From a virus, in the IMG/VR virus record IMGVR_UViG_3300045988_138808: a DNA stretch of 43,102 nucleotides; one strand, written 5' to 3'. Both the position numbers and the translations under genes were made by a program. Below, one piece after another: positions 56 through 38,077 of the stretch; position 1 is the first letter of the stretch, and the number at the start of each line of letters is the position of its first letter. The notes beneath the pieces were generated by a model, which worked only from the letters and a program-made list of their open reading frames with translations, was not told where the DNA came from and did no database searches.

Positions 56-361
56 AGATACTATAACATATCTATTACATATGTCATTCTCATCTATAAG
101 AGGTGTTATAGAGGTCTTACCCCATCTATTACGAACTCCCCTAGACTTAGCCTCGCATTGTTTGACAAATTCCTCATATTGCAAATCCAAATCAGGCTTT
201 ATCGTTTCAAGCCAAAGTTTACTGTTACAATCAACAGATGGATATTTTAGCAAAGCCTCTAAAATATTTATTTTTTCGTCATCTGGTATATATGACAAAA
301 CACCGCCCCAATCCGGCCTGATTGTCGGTTGAAATGTTGCTGGTTTATATTTTCTAGCCAT
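1..361 (-). CDS. Replication-organizer-like protein, N-terminal part. The gene runs off position 1 and continues at 43102.
   Basis: The minus frame is open from the ATG at 359..361 down to position 2. It is absent from the ORF track because no stop precedes the window edge. My translation is MARKYKPATFQPTIRPDWGGVLSYIPDDEKINILEALLKYPSVDCNSKLWLETIKPDLDLQYEEFVKQCEAKSRGVRNRWGKTSITPLIDENDICNRYVIVS(EG)n. The pattern resembles the DUF6291-type N-terminal domain of phage and plasmid replication proteins (recalled, not searched). Confidence 0.6.
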   Translation of the reverse strand, partial: MARKYKPATFQPTIRPDWGGVLSYIPDDEKINILEALLKYPSVDCNSKLWLETIKPDLDLQYEEFVKQCEAKSRGVRNRWGKTSITPLIDENDICNRYVIVSEGEGEGEGEGEGEGEGEG

Positions 362-510
362 TTTCCACACGTCTTTTAAAAGGAGGGGTATAGACCGCCG
401 AGCGGTTTTAATTGCGTGTGGATATAGATTAACTATACCCCATAATTATACATCATCCAACACGCACTTATTATACTAAACTCTATTCGCCCAAAGTCAA
501 GCATTTTATA

Positions 511-538
511 TTGACAATTTTATAATCTTTTATATAAT
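511..538 (+). promoter_or_regulatory. Sigma70-like promoter, TTGACA-16-TATAAT, pointing rightward
   Basis: TTGACA lies at 511..516 and TATAAT at 533..538, with a 16-nt spacer. No credible plus-strand CDS lies downstream. Confidence 0.5.
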
Positions 539-544
539 GTTCCT

Positions 545-625
545 GTATAATTTACTTGTCAGGGTTGCTTATGCAACTTTCTTAAAGACGGATATGATAT
601 CTATATATTGTGTCCGTCTTTTTTT
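545..625 (+). ncRNA. Candidate ~80-nt small RNA, defined by a promoter and an intrinsic terminator with no ORF
   Basis: It is bounded by the 511..538 promoter and the 584..625 terminator. It contains a small hairpin, GTTGC-TTAT-GCAAC, at about 565..578. Plus-strand ORFs 537..734 and 610..876 start inside the -10 element or the terminator and look spurious. Confidence 0.3.
584..625 (+). terminator. Rho-independent terminator, plus-strand polarity
   Basis: A perfect 9-bp stem pairs AAAGACGGA (584..592) with TCCGTCTTT (613..621) around a 20-nt loop. The stem runs into a T7 tract (619..625). It also sits 15 nt past the VRR-NUC stop, but on the minus strand only TTTAAG follows it. Confidence 0.6.
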
Positions 626-639
626 ATTTAAAGCAAGCG

Positions 640-1080
640 TTATCTCGGTTGAATATTGTTTTTGTGGAAATAATCCTCAACATCGGACACGCTTTTTGCC
701 ACGATATAATGGTGTCCGGGCAGTTTTTCAATAAGGGCTTGAAATTCTTTTTGCTCATCGCTCTGCGTTCCGGCTCGCTCATCAATGACCATGCGTTTGT
801 ATCTATCGCTCCAACGATATGTTGCTGGCTTCTTACATTCTATGCAGACGGTGCCGCCGTTAATCCATACGATTAAATCGGCGATTCCTGCCCGCCTACC
901 CATTGATTTTAATATTGCCCTAGTTACCCTACTTGAAACATTAACACCCGCGTCAGGAGCTGTAAAAACAAAGCCCCTGAGCTCCAAATATTGAACGATG
1001 CTTTTTTGAACCGGTTGTTCCGGGTGTGTATGCTTCCTTTTTGGCTTCATTCCCAGTTCTGGGATGTTAAACAAGCTCAT
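640..1080 (-). CDS. VRR-NUC domain nuclease
   Basis: The motif GIADLIVWINGGTVCIECKK fits the PD...(D/E)xK core of VRR-NUC. I prefer the ATG at 1078..1080 (MSLFNIPE...), which follows a purine-rich RBS, over the track start at 1167. Confidence 0.7.
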   Translation of the reverse strand: MSLFNIPELGMKPKRKHTHPEQPVQKSIVQYLELRGFVFTAPDAGVNVSSRVTRAILKSMGRRAGIADLIVWINGGTVCIECKKPATYRWSDRYKRMVIDERAGTQSDEQKEFQALIEKLPGHHYIVAKSVSDVEDYFHKNNIQPR

Positions 1081-1227
1081 TTCTTCTTTCTTCCAAAAAT
1101 AAAAGCAAAAATCAAAAATGTTATAACGATTGCGAGGTCGTCCGGATGCTCCCCGAAGTATTCGCATAATTCCAAAAGTGTACTTTTATTGTTCATTACT
1201 CATTCTCCCAAGTTTCGCACAAATATT

Positions 1228-1255
1228 AAAAAGTGGGGAGCCGGTAAAACTCCCC
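1228..1255 (-). terminator. Rho-independent terminator after recT
   Basis: The minus strand reads GGGGAG-TTTTACCGG-CTCCCC (plus-strand stems at 1235..1240 and 1250..1255), followed by ACTTTTTAATATTT. Confidence 0.55.
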
Positions 1256-1262
1256 GGATTGA

Positions 1263-2117
1263 TTAAAATGATATTGTTTGTTGTTGCTCTGCTGGTTCTT
1301 CCGGTGCCTTTGGTTCTTCCGGCTCCGGTTCTTCTATAATCTCGCCGGTTTTCTCGTCAAAGGTGGGGATTTCATCATCCAGCGGCAAGGCTTCATAGTC
1401 GGCTTCAACATAGCCCTGTTGCGGTTGCTTTGGCAGCTCATATTCTTCATTGTCAATATCAATGCCTTTTTGCAGTTCGGGGCTTAATGGCAGCCATTTG
1501 GACAATCTTTTGAACACTGTTTTTTTCGACATTTCATCCCGGTCGGTTACCCACGGGCCATTGTTCGGAGATTTTGAACGCTTGCGGATGGCATCAACCT
1601 CATCTTTGCTCATAACCTCGCATTTCTTGGTGCCGTCCTTAAATGTAACAATTGCATAATATGCGTAGGCTTCCCCTCTGGGCTTGCGGAAGTCAATGCG
1701 GTGTTTGGTGATTTCGCCGATATTGTATTCAAATTCGTCATTCTCGCATACTTTGTCGGCATGAATGTTGCTAATCATACCGCTACGCATAGCAAGCTCG
1801 GCAATGCCTTTATAATCAATAATAAGTTGAATGTCGTTTTTGTAGGGGATTAAATAAGCTCTGCGGCCGTCTGGCTCAATGCCAAGCTCGGCACATTTCA
1901 TAAATGCTTCGGCAAGGCTTTTTTTTCCCTCTTTTGTTTGCAATGCCAAAATCAATTTGCTGTTCTTTTTAATGCAGGTTACTGCCACTCTGGCAAATCT
2001 TTCCGGGGTGCAAATCTTTGGCAAAACTCGAACCCAACCGGCCGATAATTCATCCACATATTTTTGAACAACGTCAACCTTTTTTGTTTCTTGAACTACT
2101 GGAACATTTTCCGTCAT
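1263..2117 (-). CDS. recT: RecT-family single-strand annealing recombinase
   Basis: GIEPDGRRAYLIPYKNDIQLIIDYKGIAELAMRSGMISNIHADKVCENDEFEY matches the RecT core. The C-terminal tail is acidic and Pro/Glu-rich. An AGGAAA RBS precedes the start. Confidence 0.88.
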   Translation of the reverse strand: MTENVPVVQETKKVDVVQKYVDELSAGWVRVLPKICTPERFARVAVTCIKKNSKLILALQTKEGKKSLAEAFMKCAELGIEPDGRRAYLIPYKNDIQLIIDYKGIAELAMRSGMISNIHADKVCENDEFEYNIGEITKHRIDFRKPRGEAYAYYAIVTFKDGTKKCEVMSKDEVDAIRKRSKSPNNGPWVTDRDEMSKKTVFKRLSKWLPLSPELQKGIDIDNEEYELPKQPQQGYVEADYEALPLDDEIPTFDEKTGEIIEEPEPEEPKAPEEPAEQQQTISF

Positions 2118-2161
2118 CGTCTTTTCCTTTCTCTGTTATATTAAAATTAAAACACTATAAA

Positions 2162-2188
2162 ATTATAATGTTTTCTTGTAATTGTCAA
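2162..2188 (-). promoter_or_regulatory. Early promoter module for recT, TTGACA-15-TATAAT
   Basis: The minus strand reads GTGTTGACAATTACAAGAAAACATTATAATTTTATAGTGTTTTAATT. It is closely similar to the modules at 3152..3178 and 41656..41682. Confidence 0.45.
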
Positions 2189-2191
2189 CAC

Positions 2192-2230
2192 AAAAAACAA
2201 AAAAAATCCCCAGATTTTCTCCGGGGATTT
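2192..2230 (-). terminator. Rho-independent terminator after the exonuclease gene
   Basis: The minus strand reads AAATCCCC-GGAGAAAATCT-GGGGATTT, followed by TTTTTGTTTTTTG. The plus-strand stems lie at 2204..2211 and 2223..2230. Confidence 0.65.
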
Positions 2231-2237
2231 GTTAGGC

Positions 2238-3125
2238 TTATATTTCTTCCTCTGCTTGCTTGTTTGTTATCCATTGGCTTAAGTGCAGCTCAATAATGTT
2301 TGGGTATGGTTGCCAGATGCTATCGTCCATGGTTTCAGTCCATTGATAGTATTTTTCGGCAATGGTGTCTATAAGGTATCTGGCTCGGTCTTTTGCATAT
2401 TCCACGTCTTCCATGCAATATCGCAAAATGGCAATCATTTCTTCTTCGTCCGGTTTTTTGGACTGCATTATAAAAACGAACTCGCTCGGATATTCTCCGT
2501 ATTTTTCAAAAATCGCCTGACGGTAGACCGCATCTTGCAAATAATAGCTGTTTTTATGCGGCCACTTGATAAAGTTATCTATATCGCCTGATGTTTTGTA
2601 GTCAATAACCACAATGCCGTTCTTTGTGCGTTTTATAGCATCTACCTTGCATTTCATCAATAATCCGGTTTGGTCATCTCTCCACACAATTGGCATTTCT
2701 GTTTTTGCTCCGGCAATGATACTTGCGGCCAACTTATGCCCTCTTAAGTTTGCAATCATCTTTCCGGCACGTTCCCATTCTTCAGATGATACAATAATGC
2801 GTGGGTCTGCAAAATCTTTTATAAATTTTCGGTATGCGGCCGTATCTCTGCCCTTGGCTCCCCAATCGGCAACAACAAATCTTTTCTCTAATTCTTCCGG
2901 CTCAAGCAACATGCAGTGAGCCAACTTGCCAAAAACCAGAGCATCGCTTGGCTCTCTGTCCGCATTGTCTTTGCTGTTCGGGTTTAACGGCGATGTCTTC
3001 CAAAACTTATAAGCACCGCATCCGCCCTCGTTAAATTGTTTAATCTGGCTGGCCGAAAGTGCGGGCAATGCGAAATATTCGTCATCGTTGTTCATATTGT
3101 CAATTTGTTGTATTGTCATCTTCAT
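2238..3125 (-). CDS. PD-(D/E)XK (RecE/Cas4-like) exonuclease, partner of RecT
   Basis: KVDAIKRTKNGIVVIDYKTSGD fits the D...(D/E)xK nuclease motif, and a YYLQDAVYRQ segment follows. The gene is adjacent to recT. AGGAG abuts the first ATG, so the true start may be the second ATG at 3119. Confidence 0.7.
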   Translation of the reverse strand: MKMTIQQIDNMNNDDEYFALPALSASQIKQFNEGGCGAYKFWKTSPLNPNSKDNADREPSDALVFGKLAHCMLLEPEELEKRFVVADWGAKGRDTAAYRKFIKDFADPRIIVSSEEWERAGKMIANLRGHKLAASIIAGAKTEMPIVWRDDQTGLLMKCKVDAIKRTKNGIVVIDYKTSGDIDNFIKWPHKNSYYLQDAVYRQAIFEKYGEYPSEFVFIMQSKKPDEEEMIAILRYCMEDVEYAKDRARYLIDTIAEKYYQWTETMDDSIWQPYPNIIELHLSQWITNKQAEEEI

Positions 3126-3151
3126 CTCCTTTACAATTAAAACAATATAAA

Positions 3152-3178
3152 GTTATAATAAATTATTATAATTGTCAA
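3152..3178 (-). promoter_or_regulatory. Early promoter module for the exonuclease gene, TTGACA-15-TATAAC
   Basis: The minus strand reads TTGTTGACAATTATAATAATTTATTATAACTTTATATTGTTTTAATTGTAAAGGAG. It lies back to back with the plus-strand promoter at 3191..3218. Confidence 0.4.
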
Positions 3179-3190
3179 CAAATAAATGAC

Positions 3191-3218
3191 TTGAAAATAT
3201 TTTTTTTAACAATATAAT
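3191..3218 (+). promoter_or_regulatory. Sigma70-like promoter for the XRE regulator, TTGAAA-16-TATAAT
   Basis: TTGAAA lies at 3191..3196 and TATAAT at 3213..3218. It diverges from the leftward early promoter. Confidence 0.5.
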
Positions 3219-3263
3219 AAACCTGTGTTTAACATCAAGACACGAAACAACAAGGAGAAAACA

Positions 3264-3620
3264 ATGGAGTTAAAAGAATTTCGCTTAAAAAATAACCTCT
3301 CGCAAACAGAATTTGCAAAGATTATCGGAATACCTCGGCAGACTTATCAGACTTACGAATACGGCACAAGAAGCCCGTCAAATAGCAATTTAATCCTCAT
3401 TGAAAATGCAATGCGCAAAATCGAAAGCGAAAGAGCCGATATTAACGCCGCCGTTGACAGGTTGCAAGCCATTAAATCTTATAAAGAAATTCAAAAATAT
3501 TGGGATACTTACCACCAACAAATTGATGATGATTTTTTTGAAGAAGACAAATTTAATCTCTGGTTGATTAAAATTATCATGATTATCATTTTAGTCTTTA
3601 TATTTGCGGTGTTGTGGTAA
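3264..3620 (+). CDS. XRE-family HTH regulator with a C-terminal transmembrane helix
   Basis: MELKEFRLKNNLSQTEFAKIIGIPRQTYQTYEYGTRSPS is a classic HTH_XRE pattern. AAGGAG lies 7 nt upstream of the ATG at 3264. The C-terminus LWLIKIIMIIILVFIFAVLW is strongly hydrophobic. Confidence 0.8.
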   Translation: MELKEFRLKNNLSQTEFAKIIGIPRQTYQTYEYGTRSPSNSNLILIENAMRKIESERADINAAVDRLQAIKSYKEIQKYWDTYHQQIDDDFFEEDKFNLWLIKIIMIIILVFIFAVLW

Positions 3621-3862
3621 TGTTTTATAAGCTGTACATAGGCGACTACAATCCCAAAGGTGGGATGTGCGCCGCTCCGACAATGATTGAGCCAATGGTT
3701 AATTTTAATGGGCTTAGTGGACAAGTTAAGCGTTCGTTAGAGAAAGTGCACCACGGACTTGACTTGTACATAGTTAAGCCAAACGGCGAGGTTTTTGCCT
3801 GGTATCGTGATTTAAGCAAATATTCAAAAGAAGATATCCGGCGCATTTTACAATTTGAATAA
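3620..3862 (+). CDS. Hypothetical protein
   Basis: Its ATG overlaps the XRE stop (TAATG). It is co-oriented with the XRE gene and followed by a terminator. I recognised no motif. Confidence 0.45.
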   Translation: MFYKLYIGDYNPKGGMCAAPTMIEPMVNFNGLSGQVKRSLEKVHHGLDLYIVKPNGEVFAWYRDLSKYSKEDIRRILQFE

Positions 3863-3900
3863 ATTGTGTATAATATAAGAGCCTCTCTTCATCGCAGGGC

Positions 3901-3935
3901 AGACCCTCAAACCAGTAGGTGCGAGGGTCTATTTT
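3901..3935 (+). terminator. Rho-independent terminator between convergent genes
   Basis: AGACCCTC (3901..3908) pairs with GAGGGTCT (3923..3930), followed by ATTTT. The stem overlaps the RNase H stop codon. Confidence 0.6.
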
Positions 3936-34240: not shown

Positions 34241-37200
34241 TTATTGTCCGCCCCCAGCATATCGCCAAATTGAATGTGCCATTGATGCGGCATCACAATT
34301 TGATACTAAAATATTATTTGCATAATAGCAACCAGCTCGAACTGTTATATTATAAACCCTTTTCTTTTGCTTTCCTGCGTAGTTCTCTTTTAAGGTACTT
34401 ATCTCGACACCATCGACATATTGTCTGCTCTCTGTGGTCGTTTGGGGTATTAAATCTTCTTCCGCAATCGGGACATATTTTAGTAATATGAAGTTTGGCA
34501 ATGTATTCTTTTTGATGTTTTGAGTGCCAATCTCTTCCCTCTTTTGAGCGATGCCACTCTTTGCACATTTCTCTACCTCTTTTATTTGCTTCTTGCATTT
34601 CAGGTCTTTTCCAAATTTCAGCGGTTTTTTTGCCATGAAGTTTAGCGTGTTCGCTGTGTGATAAAAGCACCAAATTGCTAAAGTCGTTATTATCTTTATT
34701 TTCGTCTTTGTGATGAACGTGATAGCCTTTAGGAATTTCTTTTCCCGAATAAAATTCATAAACAACCCGATGAAGCCGGAATGTTTTTCTTTTTCCGTCA
34801 GCAAAGATTTTATTTTCATAATATCCTGTCTTTGGGTTACGATAGTATTTTTTGCCATTGAACAGTATAAAGATTTTATTTGCCATGAGATTAATTCCTT
34901 TATGGTCAACTTGCTAACCATAGAATAATCAACATTTTCAAGGTTGTCAAAAGAATAGTCGTGTGTTGTATATATTTTGTGGTCTTTAGTTCCGGTTAAT
35001 CCAATATTATCAATAACCGGCTTCATTCTGCTTGTTGTTCGTGTTATTGGAGAAACACCCCAAGGAGTTATGACTAAATCACCAACTTTTAATTCCTCTA
35101 TATTTTTATTTCCCAAAATTGTGGCTACTTTTGTTCCTGCAACAAAACAGCTGTCGTCGTGCGCGTGCGACATGTCTTCGGCAAACAATGCCGCTTCATT
35201 GACTAGATACTGGCTCATTTTATCATCTTTTTTCAATTTTACAAGACCACGATAAACATCCCATGAAAGCTCTCTTGTTCTGCCTACCTTGTCCTCTGGG
35301 TAGTCATATTCTTTTGGCTTCCAACAAATGGCATTGATGCCAGATTGGATGAGCGTTTGCTCCAAGCTGATTCCTGATGCCTTGTCTTCAATGTACATAA
35401 ATGCGGCCGGATTAATTAAGCTGTCGTCCGTCCACTTCCGCCATATCTGAATGGCTTTTTCCAAAAGTTCGGGGAATTCCCACTTGCCGACAATCATATC
35501 ACGCAAACGCATCTCTTTGCGTAAAAGCTCCCAAACTTGGAAGCATGAATAGTCGGCGGTCTTGGTCTTTTTGTATGCGGTGTCGGCCGTTATTATCAGT
35601 TTGCCATCAATTGCGGTATGGTCGGCATCGTACATTACCCACCAATCACGTTGGATGATGTTTCCTTTTTCGGCTACCGGCGATTGCTGATATTGTGCTT
35701 GAAACATGGTATCATTGAATGAGATTTCTTTGATACGCTCGGGGGTGTATTGACTGGCGATGTTGCAAGTGCCGTCCGGCTCAAGCAACGGGCGTATAAT
35801 GCTGTCGAATTTGTATTGCTCAAGCAAATATCCGGATAAGTCTTCCAGATGGAGCCTTTGCTGAATGTTAAATATCGGCACGTTACTATCGTTCAAGCGT
35901 GAGAGCAAGGTTTCATCGTAATACTTGCGGACTTTTTCGCGCATAACCTCAGATTGAATGTCGGCTGGCTTGTTGGCATCATCGCAATTAGAAACTAATA
36001 CTTGACATTTACCAACATACAGATTATGATTTTCATACACAGTAAGACAATAAGAGGTGTGATTATGACAAACAACGCTAATATTATTTACAAAGACATC
36101 CCCGGATATGATGGACTTTATAGAGTTTCCAATTTTGGAGATGTTATAAGCTGCTCTAGAGATGTATTTACGGGAAGCGGAGATAAAAGAAGAATTATTA
36201 AGCTCAAAGAAAAACGACTTAATCCCTCTAATAGAAAAGGTTACAAGGTTGTTAATCTTCGAAAAGATAATAAAACCCTTACCATTGGTGTTCATCAACT
36301 TGTTTTGTGGGCTTTCGTTGGCGTGCAACAAAAAGGAATAGAAGTTAGACACCTTAATAGCAATCCATCTGACGATCGTCTTGAAAATTTGCGATATGGC
36401 ACTAAATCGGAAAATATGCAAGATGCTGTTGAACTTGGTACTTTGGTTTTTTCTCGTTCCAAACTTTCTCGAAAAGATGTTGAAGAAATTGCTAAAGCAA
36501 AAGGAAGTTTGAAAGAGATTGCTCTTGCTTTTAATTGTCATCCCGGAACTGTTCAAGCAATCAAAACAAGAAAAAGTTTCAAAAATTTTGTTAAAGAAAT
36601 TAACTATACGCCCAGAAAAAAGATTGAACTTTCTTCTGATGCTTTGGAAAAAATCAGAGATAAGAACATTCCCAGACAAGAAGTTGCAAAAATTTTTAAC
36701 CTTAGTATTAACCAAATAAAAAGGATTAGAAAAGGTAACAACACAATCTATACTTGTTAAATCCTTTGCTTCAACATAGCCCCTATTCTTTGTCCATACT
36801 TTGTGATTATCTGTGCAAATAAAGCTCTTTCCATTACTTAATTTGACTTCAACAAAGCATTGTTTAGTAGGGGTTATGTTTTTAATATGTCTTTCTATGC
36901 GTTTAAGCTCTGGTCTTTCTTTCTCAAAATTATAACTCCAAACTTTTATATCCTCTTTATTTTCAACAATTTCGCCAATCTTTCTATATCCTTTTTCCGT
37001 TAAAACTAATTCGTCGTACGGAAAACAGATTAACGCCCCGGAGAAGCCTTTTGCTCCTCTTATTCCGCAATTATGAACCAATATTTGACTTTTGGTTACA
37101 AATAGGTTATTGTTGCGACATAAGGTAACACAATAACTGGGGGCGCTATGATTACAGTTGACAATATTGACTATTTTCCTATTCCCGAATTTATTAGACA

Positions 37201-38077
37201 TTATTTCGCTACCCACGGATAAAAAGTCGGCTCTCCGCTCCTCTCCGTTTTTCAAATAAAAGACGTGGTCAGGCGTGCAGTTTATTTTTTCTCCGTTGTC
37301 TAGCTCAACCTTTATATAGGGCGAATTTTCGTTTTTGACATAATCGTATATTGGCTGCAACTCTTTCTGCCTTTTATCAAAATTATAGCTCCAAACTTTC
37401 ACGTCTATTTTGTTTTCTACAATATATCCGAGTTTCATAAATCCCTTTTCTGTTAAGACTTCTGTGTTATAGTCAAAACAGCCAAACCCGGTGATTGTCG
37501 AGCCGATGGACGCAAACAGAATTTGTCCGCCTTTTGCGGTGATGATGCGTTTGCTTGCATATACCGCCTTGCCGGTTTCTTTCAAGAGATATTCTCGCCA
37601 AAAGTCATCAATCGGGTTCTCTTCTTTTTCTTCAACGCCGAACAAGCCGCTACCGTATAGCTCTTTGTATATCGGATGTTCTAAAATCTGAGCCACTTCT
37701 CTGGCAATGTCTGACAAGAGCATTTGCGAGAATGATGTATAAATAAAATTACACCGTGGGTTTTTGGTTAGGCAATAAATGAGCCAATATTTGCAGAGGG
37801 TTGTTTTTCCGGCGCGGGGCGGGATGTTCATACATTCACGGGTTATTCTCAGGTTGTATAGGTCATCAAAAACATTGAACATATCCTTGTGGATACGGTC
37901 CATGATGAAAGGCTTGCCCTCAAGAACTCGGAACATATAACGAAACCAAACCTCAAAACCTGTATCAAGCAATGTCTTGCCTAGATATTCCCGATTGATT
38001 TCGCCCGATAAAACGGTATTATTTTTTTGTTCCTTTTTGGGGCTTGCTTGTTTTTTCTGTTTTTGACTGGCCATCAT
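34241..38077 (-). CDS. terL: Terminase large subunit precursor (1278 aa) containing three inteins. The predicted spliced product is 510 aa.
   Basis: A Walker A motif, PPRAGKTT, occupies residues 86-93. After removing the inteins, a Walker-B-like GALI-CDDANKP is restored, and the nuclease motif HAHDDS-CDAASMA is restored. The exteins are residues 1-199, 337-350, 698-976 and 1261-1278 by my count. Confidence 0.9.
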   Translation of the reverse strand: MMASQKQKKQASPKKEQKNNTVLSGEINREYLGKTLLDTGFEVWFRYMFRVLEGKPFIMDRIHKDMFNVFDDLYNLRITRECMNIPPRAGKTTLCKYWLIYCLTKNPRCNFIYTSFSQMLLSDIAREVAQILEHPIYKELYGSGLFGVEEKEENPIDDFWREYLLKETGKAVYASKRIITAKGGQILFASIGSTITGFGCFDYNTEVLTEKGFMKLGYIVENKIDVKVWSYNFDKRQKELQPIYDYVKNENSPYIKVELDNGEKINCTPDHVFYLKNGEERRADFLSVGSEIMSNKFGNRKIVNIVNCNHSAPSYCVTLCRNNNLFVTKSQILVHNCGIRGAKGFSGALICFPYDELVLTEKGYRKIGEIVENKEDIKVWSYNFEKERPELKRIERHIKNITPTKQCFVEVKLSNGKSFICTDNHKVWTKNRGYVEAKDLTSIDCVVTFSNPFYLVNTKVKNFCNFLSGNVLISDFFQSIRRKFNLFSGRIVNFFNKIFETFSCFDCLNSSGMTIKSKSNLFQTSFCFSNFFNIFSRKFGTRKNQSTKFNSILHIFRFSAISQIFKTIVRWIAIKVSNFYSFLLHANESPQNKLMNTNGKGFIIFSKINNLVTFSIRGIKSFFFELNNSSFISASRKYISRAAYNISKIGNSIKSIISGDVFVNNISVVCHNHTSYCLTVYENHNLYVGKCQVLVSNCDDANKPADIQSEVMREKVRKYYDETLLSRLNDSNVPIFNIQQRLHLEDLSGYLLEQYKFDSIIRPLLEPDGTCNIASQYTPERIKEISFNDTMFQAQYQQSPVAEKGNIIQRDWWVMYDADHTAIDGKLIITADTAYKKTKTADYSCFQVWELLRKEMRLRDMIVGKWEFPELLEKAIQIWRKWTDDSLINPAAFMYIEDKASGISLEQTLIQSGINAICWKPKEYDYPEDKVGRTRELSWDVYRGLVKLKKDDKMSQYLVNEAALFAEDMSHAHDDSCFVAGTKVATILGNKNIEELKVGDLVITPWGVSPITRTTSRMKPVIDNIGLTGTKDHKIYTTHDYSFDNLENVDYSMVSKLTIKELISWQIKSLYCSMAKNTIVTQRQDIMKIKSLLTEKEKHSGFIGLFMNFIREKKFLKAITFITKTKIKIITTLAIWCFYHTANTLNFMAKKPLKFGKDLKCKKQIKEVEKCAKSGIAQKREEIGTQNIKKNTLPNFILLKYVPIAEEDLIPQTTTESRQYVDGVEISTLKENYAGKQKKRVYNITVRAGCYYANNILVSNCDAASMAHSIWRYAGGGQ
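34298..35149 (-). mobile_element. Intein 3 (284 aa) in the TerL nuclease motif
   Basis: It starts CFVAGTKVATILGNKNIEELKVGDLV (block A). Block B is TGTKDHKIY. It ends KRVYNITVRAGCYYANNILVSN, followed by Cys+1 (CDAAS). The boundary codons were checked on the sequence: TGT at 35147..35149, AAT at 34298..34300, TGT at 34295..34297. Confidence 0.8.
34350..34886 (-). CDS. HNH homing endonuclease encoded in the -1 frame inside intein 3
   Basis: LHRVVYEFYSGKEIPKGYHVHHKDENKDNNDFSNLVLLSHSEHAKLH is an HNH motif. The C-terminal CPDCGRRF...CRWC is a zinc ribbon. It has its own ATG, with AAGGA about 10 nt upstream, and its own stop. Confidence 0.8.
   Translation of the reverse strand: MANKIFILFNGKKYYRNPKTGYYENKIFADGKRKTFRLHRVVYEFYSGKEIPKGYHVHHKDENKDNNDFSNLVLLSHSEHAKLHGKKTAEIWKRPEMQEANKRGREMCKEWHRSKEGRDWHSKHQKEYIAKLHITKICPDCGRRFNTPNDHREQTICRWCRDKYLKRELRRKAKEKGL
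36002..36030 (+). promoter_or_regulatory. Sigma70-like promoter TTGACA-17-TATGAT for the antisense HNH gene
   Basis: TTGACA lies at 36002..36007 and TATGAT at 36025..36030. AAGAGGTG then precedes the ATG at 36065. All three elements lie inside the minus-strand intein coding sequence. Confidence 0.55.
36065..36760 (+). CDS. NUMOD4-HNH-NUMOD1-type homing endonuclease, antisense within intein 2
   Basis: IYKDIPGYDGLYRVSNFGDVIS resembles NUMOD4. HQLVLWAFVG...VRHLNSNPSDDRLENLRYGTKSENMQDA is an HNH_3 motif. Two HTH-like segments follow: LKEIALAFNCHPGTVQAIK and RQEVAKIFNLSINQIKRIR. I prefer the ATG at 36065, which has a strong RBS, over the track TTG at 36002. Confidence 0.85.
   Translation: MTNNANIIYKDIPGYDGLYRVSNFGDVISCSRDVFTGSGDKRRIIKLKEKRLNPSNRKGYKVVNLRKDNKTLTIGVHQLVLWAFVGVQQKGIEVRHLNSNPSDDRLENLRYGTKSENMQDAVELGTLVFSRSKLSRKDVEEIAKAKGSLKEIALAFNCHPGTVQAIKTRKSFKNFVKEINYTPRKKIELSSDALEKIRDKNIPRQEVAKIFNLSINQIKRIRKGNNTIYTC
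37070..37480 (-). mobile_element. Intein 1 (137-aa mini-intein) in the TerL ATPase domain
   Basis: It starts CFDYNTEVLTEKGFMKLGYIVENKIDVKVW. Block B is CTPDHVFY. It ends SYCVTLCRNNNLFVTKSQILVHN, followed by Cys+1 (CGIRG). The boundary codons were checked: TGT at 37478..37480, AAT at 37070..37072, TGC at 37067..37069. Confidence 0.8.

Follow-up and report, generated by a model that had tools for sequence, protein, structure and literature searches.

The intein 3 locus in the large terminase gene

The locus lies in a viral DNA of 43,102 nucleotides (nt), IMG/VR record IMGVR_UViG_3300045988_138808, and this whole stretch is referred to below as the window. It contains a gene for the large terminase subunit (TerL) that is interrupted by three inteins. 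The third of these, intein 3, divides the nuclease motif of TerL and carries on the same strand, in another reading frame, a gene for an HNH homing endonuclease. The features of intein 3 and of the surrounding gene are listed below, where a slash within a motif marks the point of insertion and lengths of proteins are given in amino acids (aa).

34241..38077, minus strand: TerL precursor open reading frame (ORF), 1278 aa, the sole stop being the terminal one
34298..35149, minus strand: intein 3, 284 aa, 852 nt, within the TerL nuclease motif HAHDDS/CDAASMA
34886..35149, minus strand: N-terminal splicing part of intein 3, residues 1-88, blocks A and B, ending where the HNH gene starts
34896..34900, minus strand: Shine-Dalgarno-like AAGGA, 9 nt ahead of the HNH start codon, ATG (34884-34886)
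34350..34886, minus strand: HNH homing endonuclease gene, 178 aa, 537 nt with its own stop, encoding an H-N-H motif and a C-terminal CxxC...CxxC
34424..34885, minus strand: spacer, the TerL-frame reading across the HNH gene, rich in Lys, Ile and Thr, about 155 codons, 0 stops
34350..34423, minus strand: dual-coding stretch of about 74 nt, in which the C-terminal tail of the HNH protein (...RDKYLKRELRRKAKEKGL, then stop) lies over the start of the C-terminal splicing part
34298..34423, minus strand: C-terminal splicing part of intein 3, about 42 aa, blocks F and G (...VYNITV...NILVSN), which aligns with the family and with solved mini-inteins after spacer removal
34241..34297, minus strand: C-extein, the last 18 TerL codons and the stop

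The HNH ORF is offset by +2 (equivalent to -1) relative to the TerL frame. Its product matched the Pfam domain HNH_3 with an expectation value (E) of 2.9e-16 and 59.3 bits against a cut-off of 24.8, and it matched PHROG families of HNH endonucleases, with E=3e-28 for phrog_15471. The only solved structure that was matched was the homing nickase I-HmuI (PDB 1U3E, E=1.2e-8). A preliminary description of the sequence had recognised this ORF as an HNH protein in the -1 frame with its own ATG, AAGGA and stop, and the profile score and frame offset agree with that assignment. Upstream, the HNH frame extends only as far as a stop that lies 9 codons before the ATG. A Shine-Dalgarno-like motif followed by ATG or GTG was found at the equivalent place in L021, L020, L029, L030, L032 and L033, the motif being AAGGA, GAGG, GGAGG or AAGGAG across lineages that have otherwise diverged; in Tetrasphaera phage TJE1 (L031) the start signal is weaker and consists of GGA only. 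These signals suggest that the HNH protein is translated separately, from AAGGA-N9-ATG in the window.

Intein 3 begins with CFVAGTK and ends with NILVSN, followed by Cys. The first-position cysteine C1, T54 and H57 of block B, and N284 followed by Cys are invariant across the alignments, and the N-terminal splicing part measures 88-93 aa among six lineages. A family profile was built from these six lineages by joining the N- and C-terminal parts with the spacer left out. Compared with solved mini-inteins this profile gave its best match to gp41-1 (6QAZ, E=1.1e-17) over profile positions 5-132 of 133, and it also matched the DnaX, RecA and DnaB inteins over their full length with E=1e-13 to 1e-11. 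Since the two parts match mini-inteins over the full length, the HNH gene is placed at the usual endonuclease-insertion or split site. Intein 3 minus its spacer is therefore predicted to be a complete mini-intein with a class-1-type Hint scaffold; because the copy in the window matches weakly by itself, its membership of the inteins rests on the family profile together with C1, T54/H57 and the terminal Asn-Cys.

The HNH stop lies 17 codons ahead of the end of intein 3, and the dual-coding end of the HNH ORF has few variable sites between close relatives. In the preliminary description the intein frame was said to have no recognisable domain across the HNH gene; this holds for the spacer, and fails for the last 23 or so codons under the HNH tail, which belong to the C-terminal splicing part. 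Profile searches on the two frames, which had been proposed there as a check, gave HNH_3 in the HNH frame, and in the intein frame a match to Hint_2 below threshold together with the family-profile match to mini-inteins at E=1.1e-17.

Empty and occupied alleles in sister phages

Sister phages with TerL exteins 92-100% identical to those of the window were identified in IMG/VR. In L034-L038 the nuclease motif is uninterrupted and reads HAHDDS/VD(S or A)ASMA, the DNA at the insertion point being ...CACGACGACAGC/GTTGATAGTGCA..., and the occupied allele reads HAHDDS-(852 nt)-CDAASMA, with Val changed to Cys at position +1. The coordinates of intein 3 are exact because these empty alleles fix the insertion, and the 852-nt insertion is precisely the one placed at 34298-35149, between HAHDDS and CDAASMA, in the preliminary description. 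Intein 3 is absent from L034-L038, and no HNH gene was found in these phages within the 4-kb flanks examined. The occupancy of the three insertion sites is as follows.

L034-L036: inteins 1, 2 and 3 all absent
L037: intein 1 a mini-intein, inteins 2 and 3 absent
L038: intein 1 absent, intein 2 with an antisense gene, intein 3 absent
L007 and L040: intein 1 absent, intein 2 with an antisense gene, intein 3 with the HNH gene
L008 and L039: intein 1 with an antisense HNH gene, intein 2 absent, intein 3 with the HNH gene
Window: intein 1 a mini-intein, intein 2 with an antisense gene, intein 3 with the HNH gene

The three inteins are thus present or absent independently of one another among the sister phages, and intein 3 is always accompanied by its HNH gene. 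The presence and absence pattern of intein 3 is typical of homing elements.

Open frames and selection

Over the 537 nt of the HNH gene the TerL frame contains 0 stops and the third frame contains 20, and the two coding frames are both open as previously described. When the HNH protein was held fixed and its codons were resampled according to the codon usage of the window, a mean of 2.1 stops was obtained in the TerL frame, with a probability of 0.06 for no stops (P(0)=0.06). The figure of 2e-4 that had been put forward for the chance of two open frames is of the right order when the free-standing homologues of the HNH gene are taken as the reference and too small once the HNH protein is given. 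Since P(0) is 0.06 for the fixed protein, the significance comes from replication. Eleven free-standing homologues contain 6-16 stops in the equivalent frame; each of the 8 nested copies inspected one by one contains 0. The stop count expected for the nested HNH proteins is below that of the free-standing ones, which indicates that their amino-acid sequences have been shaped as well.

Substitutions between close relatives fall unevenly on the two frames. Among the window, L003 and L007-L009 there are 67 variable sites, distributed 19/10/38 over HNH codon positions 1, 2 and 3. The ratio of non-synonymous to synonymous substitution rates (dN/dS), calculated by the method of Nei and Gojobori, was 0.11-0.24 for the HNH reading, against 1.0-2.8 when the same bases were read in the TerL frame; the Hint-N part, read in the TerL frame, gave 0.10 and the extein 0.03. 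This is the comparison of constraint in each frame that had been suggested with the preliminary description, and it identifies the HNH frame as the selected one. The peptide encoded by the TerL frame over the HNH gene has no amino-acid constraint and is just a stop-free spacer, the dN/dS values above 1 being an artefact expected from gene overlap.

With the HNH gene at +1, the frame that the TerL reading would have to take contains 9-34 stops in all homologues, compared with 0-16 in the frame that is used. The fixed -1 frame could reflect either common descent of the composite or an unusable +1 placement, and both are possible.

The spacer peptide ITKTKIKIITT (window 34424-34885, minus strand) corresponds to the conserved HHKDENKDNN read in the +1 frame. 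Shadow peptides like it recur among the TerL proteins in databases, and phrog_35162, which is listed with unknown function, as well as positions 540-677 (approximately) of phrog_30251, seem to have been built on such spacer translations.

Recurrence in other phages

The layout of intein 3 is common among phages. With both frames open, it was found in the Logan contigs L003 and L004, whose HNH proteins are 90% identical to that of the window, and in the IMG/VR contigs L007-L009, which are 96-98% identical. It was found again in a second TerL lineage (L021 and L020, 44-62% identical) and in four phage isolates: Clostridium phage phiCDHM19, Tetrasphaera phage TJE1, Acinetobacter phage Highwayman and Rhodobacteraceae phage LS06-2018-MD07. 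In all four isolates the whole region is annotated merely as terminase large subunit.

A wider survey, in which IMG/VR was scanned by pattern and with the Hint profile, gave 79 usable loci. An HNH homologue lies inside the intein in 64 of these, always in the -1 frame (64/64) and never in frame (0/64), and the intein frame is open as far as the C-terminal splice motif in 64/64. A further 10 of the 79 are endonuclease-free mini-inteins of 124-162 aa, and L088, with an intein of 175 aa, retains just a C-terminal remnant of the HNH protein. Of the 64 nested HNH genes about 57 are intact, and the other 7 contain 1-3 stops in the HNH frame, with the TerL frame still open. Such decay of the HNH gene next to an open TerL frame is to be expected if the phage depends on TerL and can do without the endonuclease. 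The host proteins that were recognised by Pfam carry mostly the terminase nuclease domains Terminase_6C and Terminase_3C, with a few other proteins among them.

The decaying HNH copies are those of L042, L060, L064, L079, L087, L091 and L101. Three large relatives lack a -1-frame HNH gene, namely L100 and L102, with inteins of 383 aa, and L111, with an intein of 342 aa. L100 and L102 gave weak antisense matches to the zinc-ribbon part of the HNH profile and L111 gave zero matches; these three may carry endonucleases of other types. A single TerL gene in L021 (3239-6793) contains both a canonical in-frame LAGLIDADG intein at Walker A (GLGKA/LALDE...ITHN/S) and a -1-frame HNH intein at the nuclease motif.

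A HMMER search of 1.84 billion representative proteins with the spacer peptide gave 54 clusters at E<=1e-3, mostly of 640-1217 aa. Ten clusters were tested, and a Hint or intein domain was present in 10/10 and a terminase Pfam domain in 8/10, the Hint domain coming directly after the nuclease domain wherever the latter was detected. A database search with the in-frame translation of intein 3 returned 4 hits only, gene callers usually calling the HNH ORF instead. Searching GenBank phages by megablast with TerL gave zero matches, and protein-level searches were required.

Free-standing relatives and a fractured terminase gene

The closest free-standing homologues of the HNH protein are 51-59% identical to it and are encoded between an intein-free TerL gene and the portal gene, at the following positions.

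L001, 295-858: free-standing HNH homologue
L002, 5001-5606: free-standing HNH homologue
L006, 2400-2966: free-standing HNH homologue

These genes start 13-63 nt past the TerL stop, and their distance to the site HDDx/VD, which corresponds to the insertion point of intein 3, is about 70-125 nt. In a neighbour-joining tree of HNH proteins, which carries no support values, the HNH protein of the window grouped with the free-standing post-TerL genes and apart from the other nested copies.

A different arrangement was found in Vibrio phage 1.238.A (L033, NC_055735), in which the TerL locus extends over 200-3928 and the TerL reading ends shortly beyond the start of the HNH gene.

L033, stop at 3076: ORF for the N-extein and N-terminal intein part
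L033, 2962-3672: HNH gene
L033, 3611-3928: separate ORF with its own GGAGGA-ATG, for the C-terminal intein part with the C-extein; its frame is that of the N part

This locus looks like a naturally split TerL intein with the HNH gene between its halves, of the fractured-gene type.

The other inteins of the terminase gene

Inteins 1, 2 and 3 occupy TerL residues 200-336, 351-697 and 977-1260, respectively. Once they are taken out a TerL of 510 aa remains, the length that had been given in the preliminary description, and this spliced protein is about 30% identical to the large terminases of coliphages with 91% of the length covered. The features of the first two inteins are as follows.

37070..37480, minus strand: intein 1, a 137-aa mini-intein without endonuclease gene, site GFG/CGIRG, NCBIfam intein_Nterm E=3e-13
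35987..37027, minus strand: intein 2, 347 aa, at the Walker B motif (ALI/CDD), Pfam Intein_splicing E=2.9e-21
36002..36760, plus strand: antisense NUMOD4+HNH_3 homing endonuclease gene within intein 2, 252 aa, Pfam NUMOD4 2e-11 and HNH_3 1.1e-10

In the preliminary description inteins 2 and 3 had been taken as two topologically different cases of an intein scaffold with an out-of-frame endonuclease, and this was borne out for intein 2: the TerL frame is free of stops across the 252-codon antisense gene, for which synonymous resampling gave a chance of P(0)=1.5e-4. Intein 2 is missing in L008 and L034-L037. Inteins 1 and 2 share 48% identity in their Hint parts, and on account of this identity one of the two probably gave rise to the other.

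The allele of intein 1 in L008 and L039 (L008 3875-4858) contains an antisense NUMOD4-HNH gene of about 230 aa at the same internal point. It is 33% identical to the antisense gene of intein 2, and there also the TerL frame is open.

Interpretation and alternative explanations

Intein 3 is very probably a composite homing element, made up of a splicing scaffold and a separately translated I-HmuI-like HNH endonuclease. This reading is built on what was observed: the anatomy of the element, its exact insertion, how selection acts on either frame, its sporadic occurrence among sister phages and its recurrence throughout the family. TerL would be translated straight through the spacer, after which the N-terminal part of about 88 aa and the C-terminal part of about 42 aa would fold together and excise the intein of 284 aa. 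Splicing would join HAHDDS to CDAASMA, giving back the nuclease motif, in which Cys would replace Val; that intein 3 splices is predicted because TerL is essential and the insert lies inside the nuclease motif. The HNH protein, made separately from its own start signals, would cut or nick the intein-free TerL alleles (HAHDDS/VDSASMA) of a co-infecting phage. Homing would follow, since repair off the occupied allele would transfer the intein along with its HNH gene. The spacer would stay stop-free because a stop would destroy the essential terminase.

Several results weigh against this interpretation. That the intein splices, that the HNH protein is made on its own and that it cuts the empty allele are all predictions from sequence. 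The Pfam Hint_2 match of the N-terminal splicing part (E=1e-5, 26.4 bits) falls below the cut-off of 28.4 bits, a PDB search with the single spacer-less sequence of intein 3 gave weak matches with E=0.08-0.4, and none of the NCBIfam intein models matched intein 3 or its spacer-less construct. The penultimate residue is Ser (VSN) in place of His, a position that is known to vary among inteins. An AlphaFold2 model of the in-frame intein 3, made with a 4-sequence alignment, had a mean predicted local distance difference test score (pLDDT) of 39.9 with no confident fold in the spacer, and is uninformative. For a single copy both frames are open with P of about 0.06 given the protein, and the window alone is not decisive. 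The RNA around the HNH ribosome-binding site was folded in search of a hairpin masking this site, as in T4-type endonuclease genes, and showed no significant structure (z=0.39). A promoter-like sequence, TTGACA-17-TATTCT at 34950..34922 on the minus strand, lies 36 nt ahead of the ATG; it is not claimed as a promoter, such sites occurring at the rate seen in shuffled sequence.

The out-of-frame position of the HNH gene could be thought to arise from sequencing or assembly error, a canonical in-frame HNH intein having been displaced by two indels. One relative lends itself to this explanation, since L005 differs by 1 nt in an A7 run, as a result of which the TerL reading is interrupted and the N-terminal end of the HNH protein is joined to the C-terminal end of the intein. 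This Logan contig (ERR4088665) has five 1-nt deletions in 2.5 kb, however, all of them in A5-A7 runs and hitting TerL, the intein and HNH region and the portal gene, so that L005 is an erroneous sequence in which a homopolymer artefact mimics an HNH-intein fusion. The layout of the window is reproduced in frame, base for base, in L003, L004, L007, L008 and L009, and it recurs in the four isolate genomes and in 64/64 of the HNH-carrying survey loci. The preliminary description had argued that a frameshift error would not leave both frames open, and had named an in-frame HNH domain in relatives as the finding that would overturn it; both frames are open in independent assemblies and isolates, and no relative with the domain in frame was found. 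With a stop in the HNH frame 9 codons ahead of the ATG and a Shine-Dalgarno-like motif of its own besides, the probability of such an error is negligible. Programmed -1 ribosomal frameshifting would instead produce the HNH protein joined to Hint-N and the N-extein of TerL, leaving its own start unused, and the HNH gene does occupy in every family member the -1 frame, which is the direction of the commonest programmed frameshifts. The same upstream stop leaves 27 nt between it and the ATG (AAG TTG ACC ATA AAG GAA TTA ATC TCA), and these contain no X XXY YYZ slippery site. The conservation of a start codon and Shine-Dalgarno-like motif at the same place in diverged lineages also argues against a fusion, and the fixed -1 frame has a simpler cause in that the +1 alternative, with its 9-34 stops, is effectively unavailable. 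Frameshifting of this kind is considered highly improbable.

The role of the HNH protein and the state of the element can be questioned in the same way. HNH genes adjoining terminase genes are known packaging factors (see also PMC3592412), and the HNH protein could be an accessory nuclease for packaging, like those encoded beside the terminase genes of HK97-like phages, that is merely housed in an intein. The position of its closest free-standing homologues (51-59% identical), between TerL and portal and 13-63 nt past the TerL stop, fits this explanation. The gene is dispensable, however, as it is missing from the 4-kb flanks in L034-L038 in spite of TerL identities of 92-100%, and in the lineage of the window it is strictly tied to the intein. 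The only solved structure that it matches is an intron-encoded homing nickase, I-HmuI, and 7/64 of the nested copies are decaying; a packaging function is accordingly judged unlikely. Alternatively, the locus might be a dead relic, in which the intein no longer splices or the HNH protein is inactive and the open frames are left from a recent insertion. Close relatives differ by just 2-8% of nucleotides in this region, which leaves little time for stops to accumulate. The frame is nevertheless open in members that share just about 30-45% protein identity, the HNH frame is under purifying selection, and an insertion within HDD..D, the catalytic motif of an enzyme that the phage needs, should be lethal if it did not splice. 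A relic is on these grounds very unlikely, and a composite homing element remains the preferred interpretation of intein 3.

It is possible, though somewhat doubtful, that the -1-frame layout is a stable design of the whole, widespread family of TerL inteins and not an intermediate on the way to a canonical in-frame intein, with the stages of its history preserved side by side. Stability of the overlapping layout is suggested because 0/64 copies are in frame. The history would start from a free-standing HNH gene just past the TerL stop, an arrangement reminiscent of collaborative homing, in which an endonuclease gene works with a splicing element. A second stage would be represented by those members of this Hint family that occur in other phages as mini-inteins without an endonuclease, and a third by the nested composite with overlapping frames. 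In a fourth stage the HNH frame may decay while the TerL frame is held open, and the fractured TerL with a split intein in the isolated Vibrio phage may represent a fifth.

Significance and comparison with known systems

The genes described here have been deposited as one long terminase large subunit, and the inner endonuclease gene has been overlooked. At least part of phrog_30251, a terminase family, and probably all of phrog_35162 rest on meaningless spacer translation. For the evolution of mobile inteins the family offers unusually direct evidence of an origin in which the splicing scaffold came first and the endonuclease gene later, and it suggests a path from a nested gene to a split intein. 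If the layout is indeed a stable design, these phages would form a natural system for testing both how inteins acquire endonucleases and how split inteins originate. As one frame is selected for protein and the other for the absence of stops only, the overlap is also a useful test for overlap-detection methods. On the practical side, the nearest solved relative, gp41-1, is a widely used fast split intein, and the present family would tolerate an unstructured insert of 150 aa at the split site.

Inteins with an endonuclease in a separate frame are already known from preprints of 2025-2026, and an antisense case from 1998. Not found in the works compared below were an HNH_3 or I-HmuI-like enzyme in such a role, whether same-strand or antisense, the spread outside actinophages, the strict -1 frame throughout a family, the three such sites in one TerL lineage, and the link to free-standing post-TerL genes and to an HNH-type fractured TerL.

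The closest parallel is the work of Gosselin, Arsenault and Gogarten (bioRxiv 10.1101/2025.01.02.630785) on actinobacteriophage inteins, many of them in TerL, in which the endonuclease occupies a separate frame. The types described there are an antisense LAGLIDADG, an antisense VSR-like and a same-strand 'frame 3' endonuclease VII-like enzyme, and a free-standing endonuclease gene invading an intein was proposed as their origin. As in those inteins, an endonuclease ORF lies between the splicing blocks of intein 3 (-1 frame) and intein 2 (antisense), the intein frame is free of stops, and its read-through forms no recognisable structure. The enzymes are set apart by their descriptions: the same-strand enzyme here is HNH_3 or I-HmuI-like with a zinc ribbon, and not endonuclease VII-like, while the antisense genes of inteins 1 and 2 encode NUMOD4+HNH_3 proteins where theirs are LAGLIDADG or VSR-like. 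In addition, the present family was found mainly outside the actinophages, in phages of Clostridium, Acinetobacter, Rhodobacteraceae and Vibrio and in many metagenomic phages. Gosselin et al. suggested that such ORFs may drift into frame by indels; 0/64 have done so here.

Gosselin et al. also cite Gorbalenya (1998) for an antisense LAGLIDADG endonuclease in the DnaX intein of Synechocystis. A 2026 preprint (10.64898/2026.09.14.751524) describes the cyanobacterial dnaX intein as sporadic and proposes the secondary invasion of a mini-intein. The dnaX intein resembles intein 3 in that the endonuclease is read from another frame and the distribution is sporadic; it belongs to cellular cyanobacteria, and the host gene, hosts, endonuclease family and strand are all different here.

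The fractured genes of Dassa et al. 2009 (PMC2677866), one locus of which is a terminase, have a free-standing endonuclease gene between the halves of a split intein; at its 3' end this gene shares 6-69 bp with the intein part that follows. The HNH gene of intein 3 likewise occupies the split site and overlaps the C-terminal intein part with its 3' end, and the best match of the family, gp41-1, is the intein of the gp41 helicase, a gene that was reported as fractured in that study. In contrast, the TerL of the window is unbroken and the intein frame continues through the endonuclease gene, and the enzyme is an HNH protein where those of the fractured genes are GIY-YIG and Vsr-like. A fractured version of the Dassa type that carries the present HNH family appears to be provided by Vibrio phage 1.238.A.

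Arsenault et al. 2025 (PMC11855218) described the ShiLan insertion, an out-of-frame HNH gene inside a phage DNA methylase gene. An HNH gene is in both cases hidden in another frame of a stop-free host ORF; the ShiLan insertion is without a splicing domain, whereas the HNH gene described here is flanked by a complete intein. Where a canonical intein contains an HNH or LAGLIDADG endonuclease, the enzyme is read in frame as a domain of the intein itself. Intein 3 shares with such inteins the position of the endonuclease between blocks B and F and the same logic of homing, and differs in that its endonuclease would be a separate polypeptide made from an overlapping frame.

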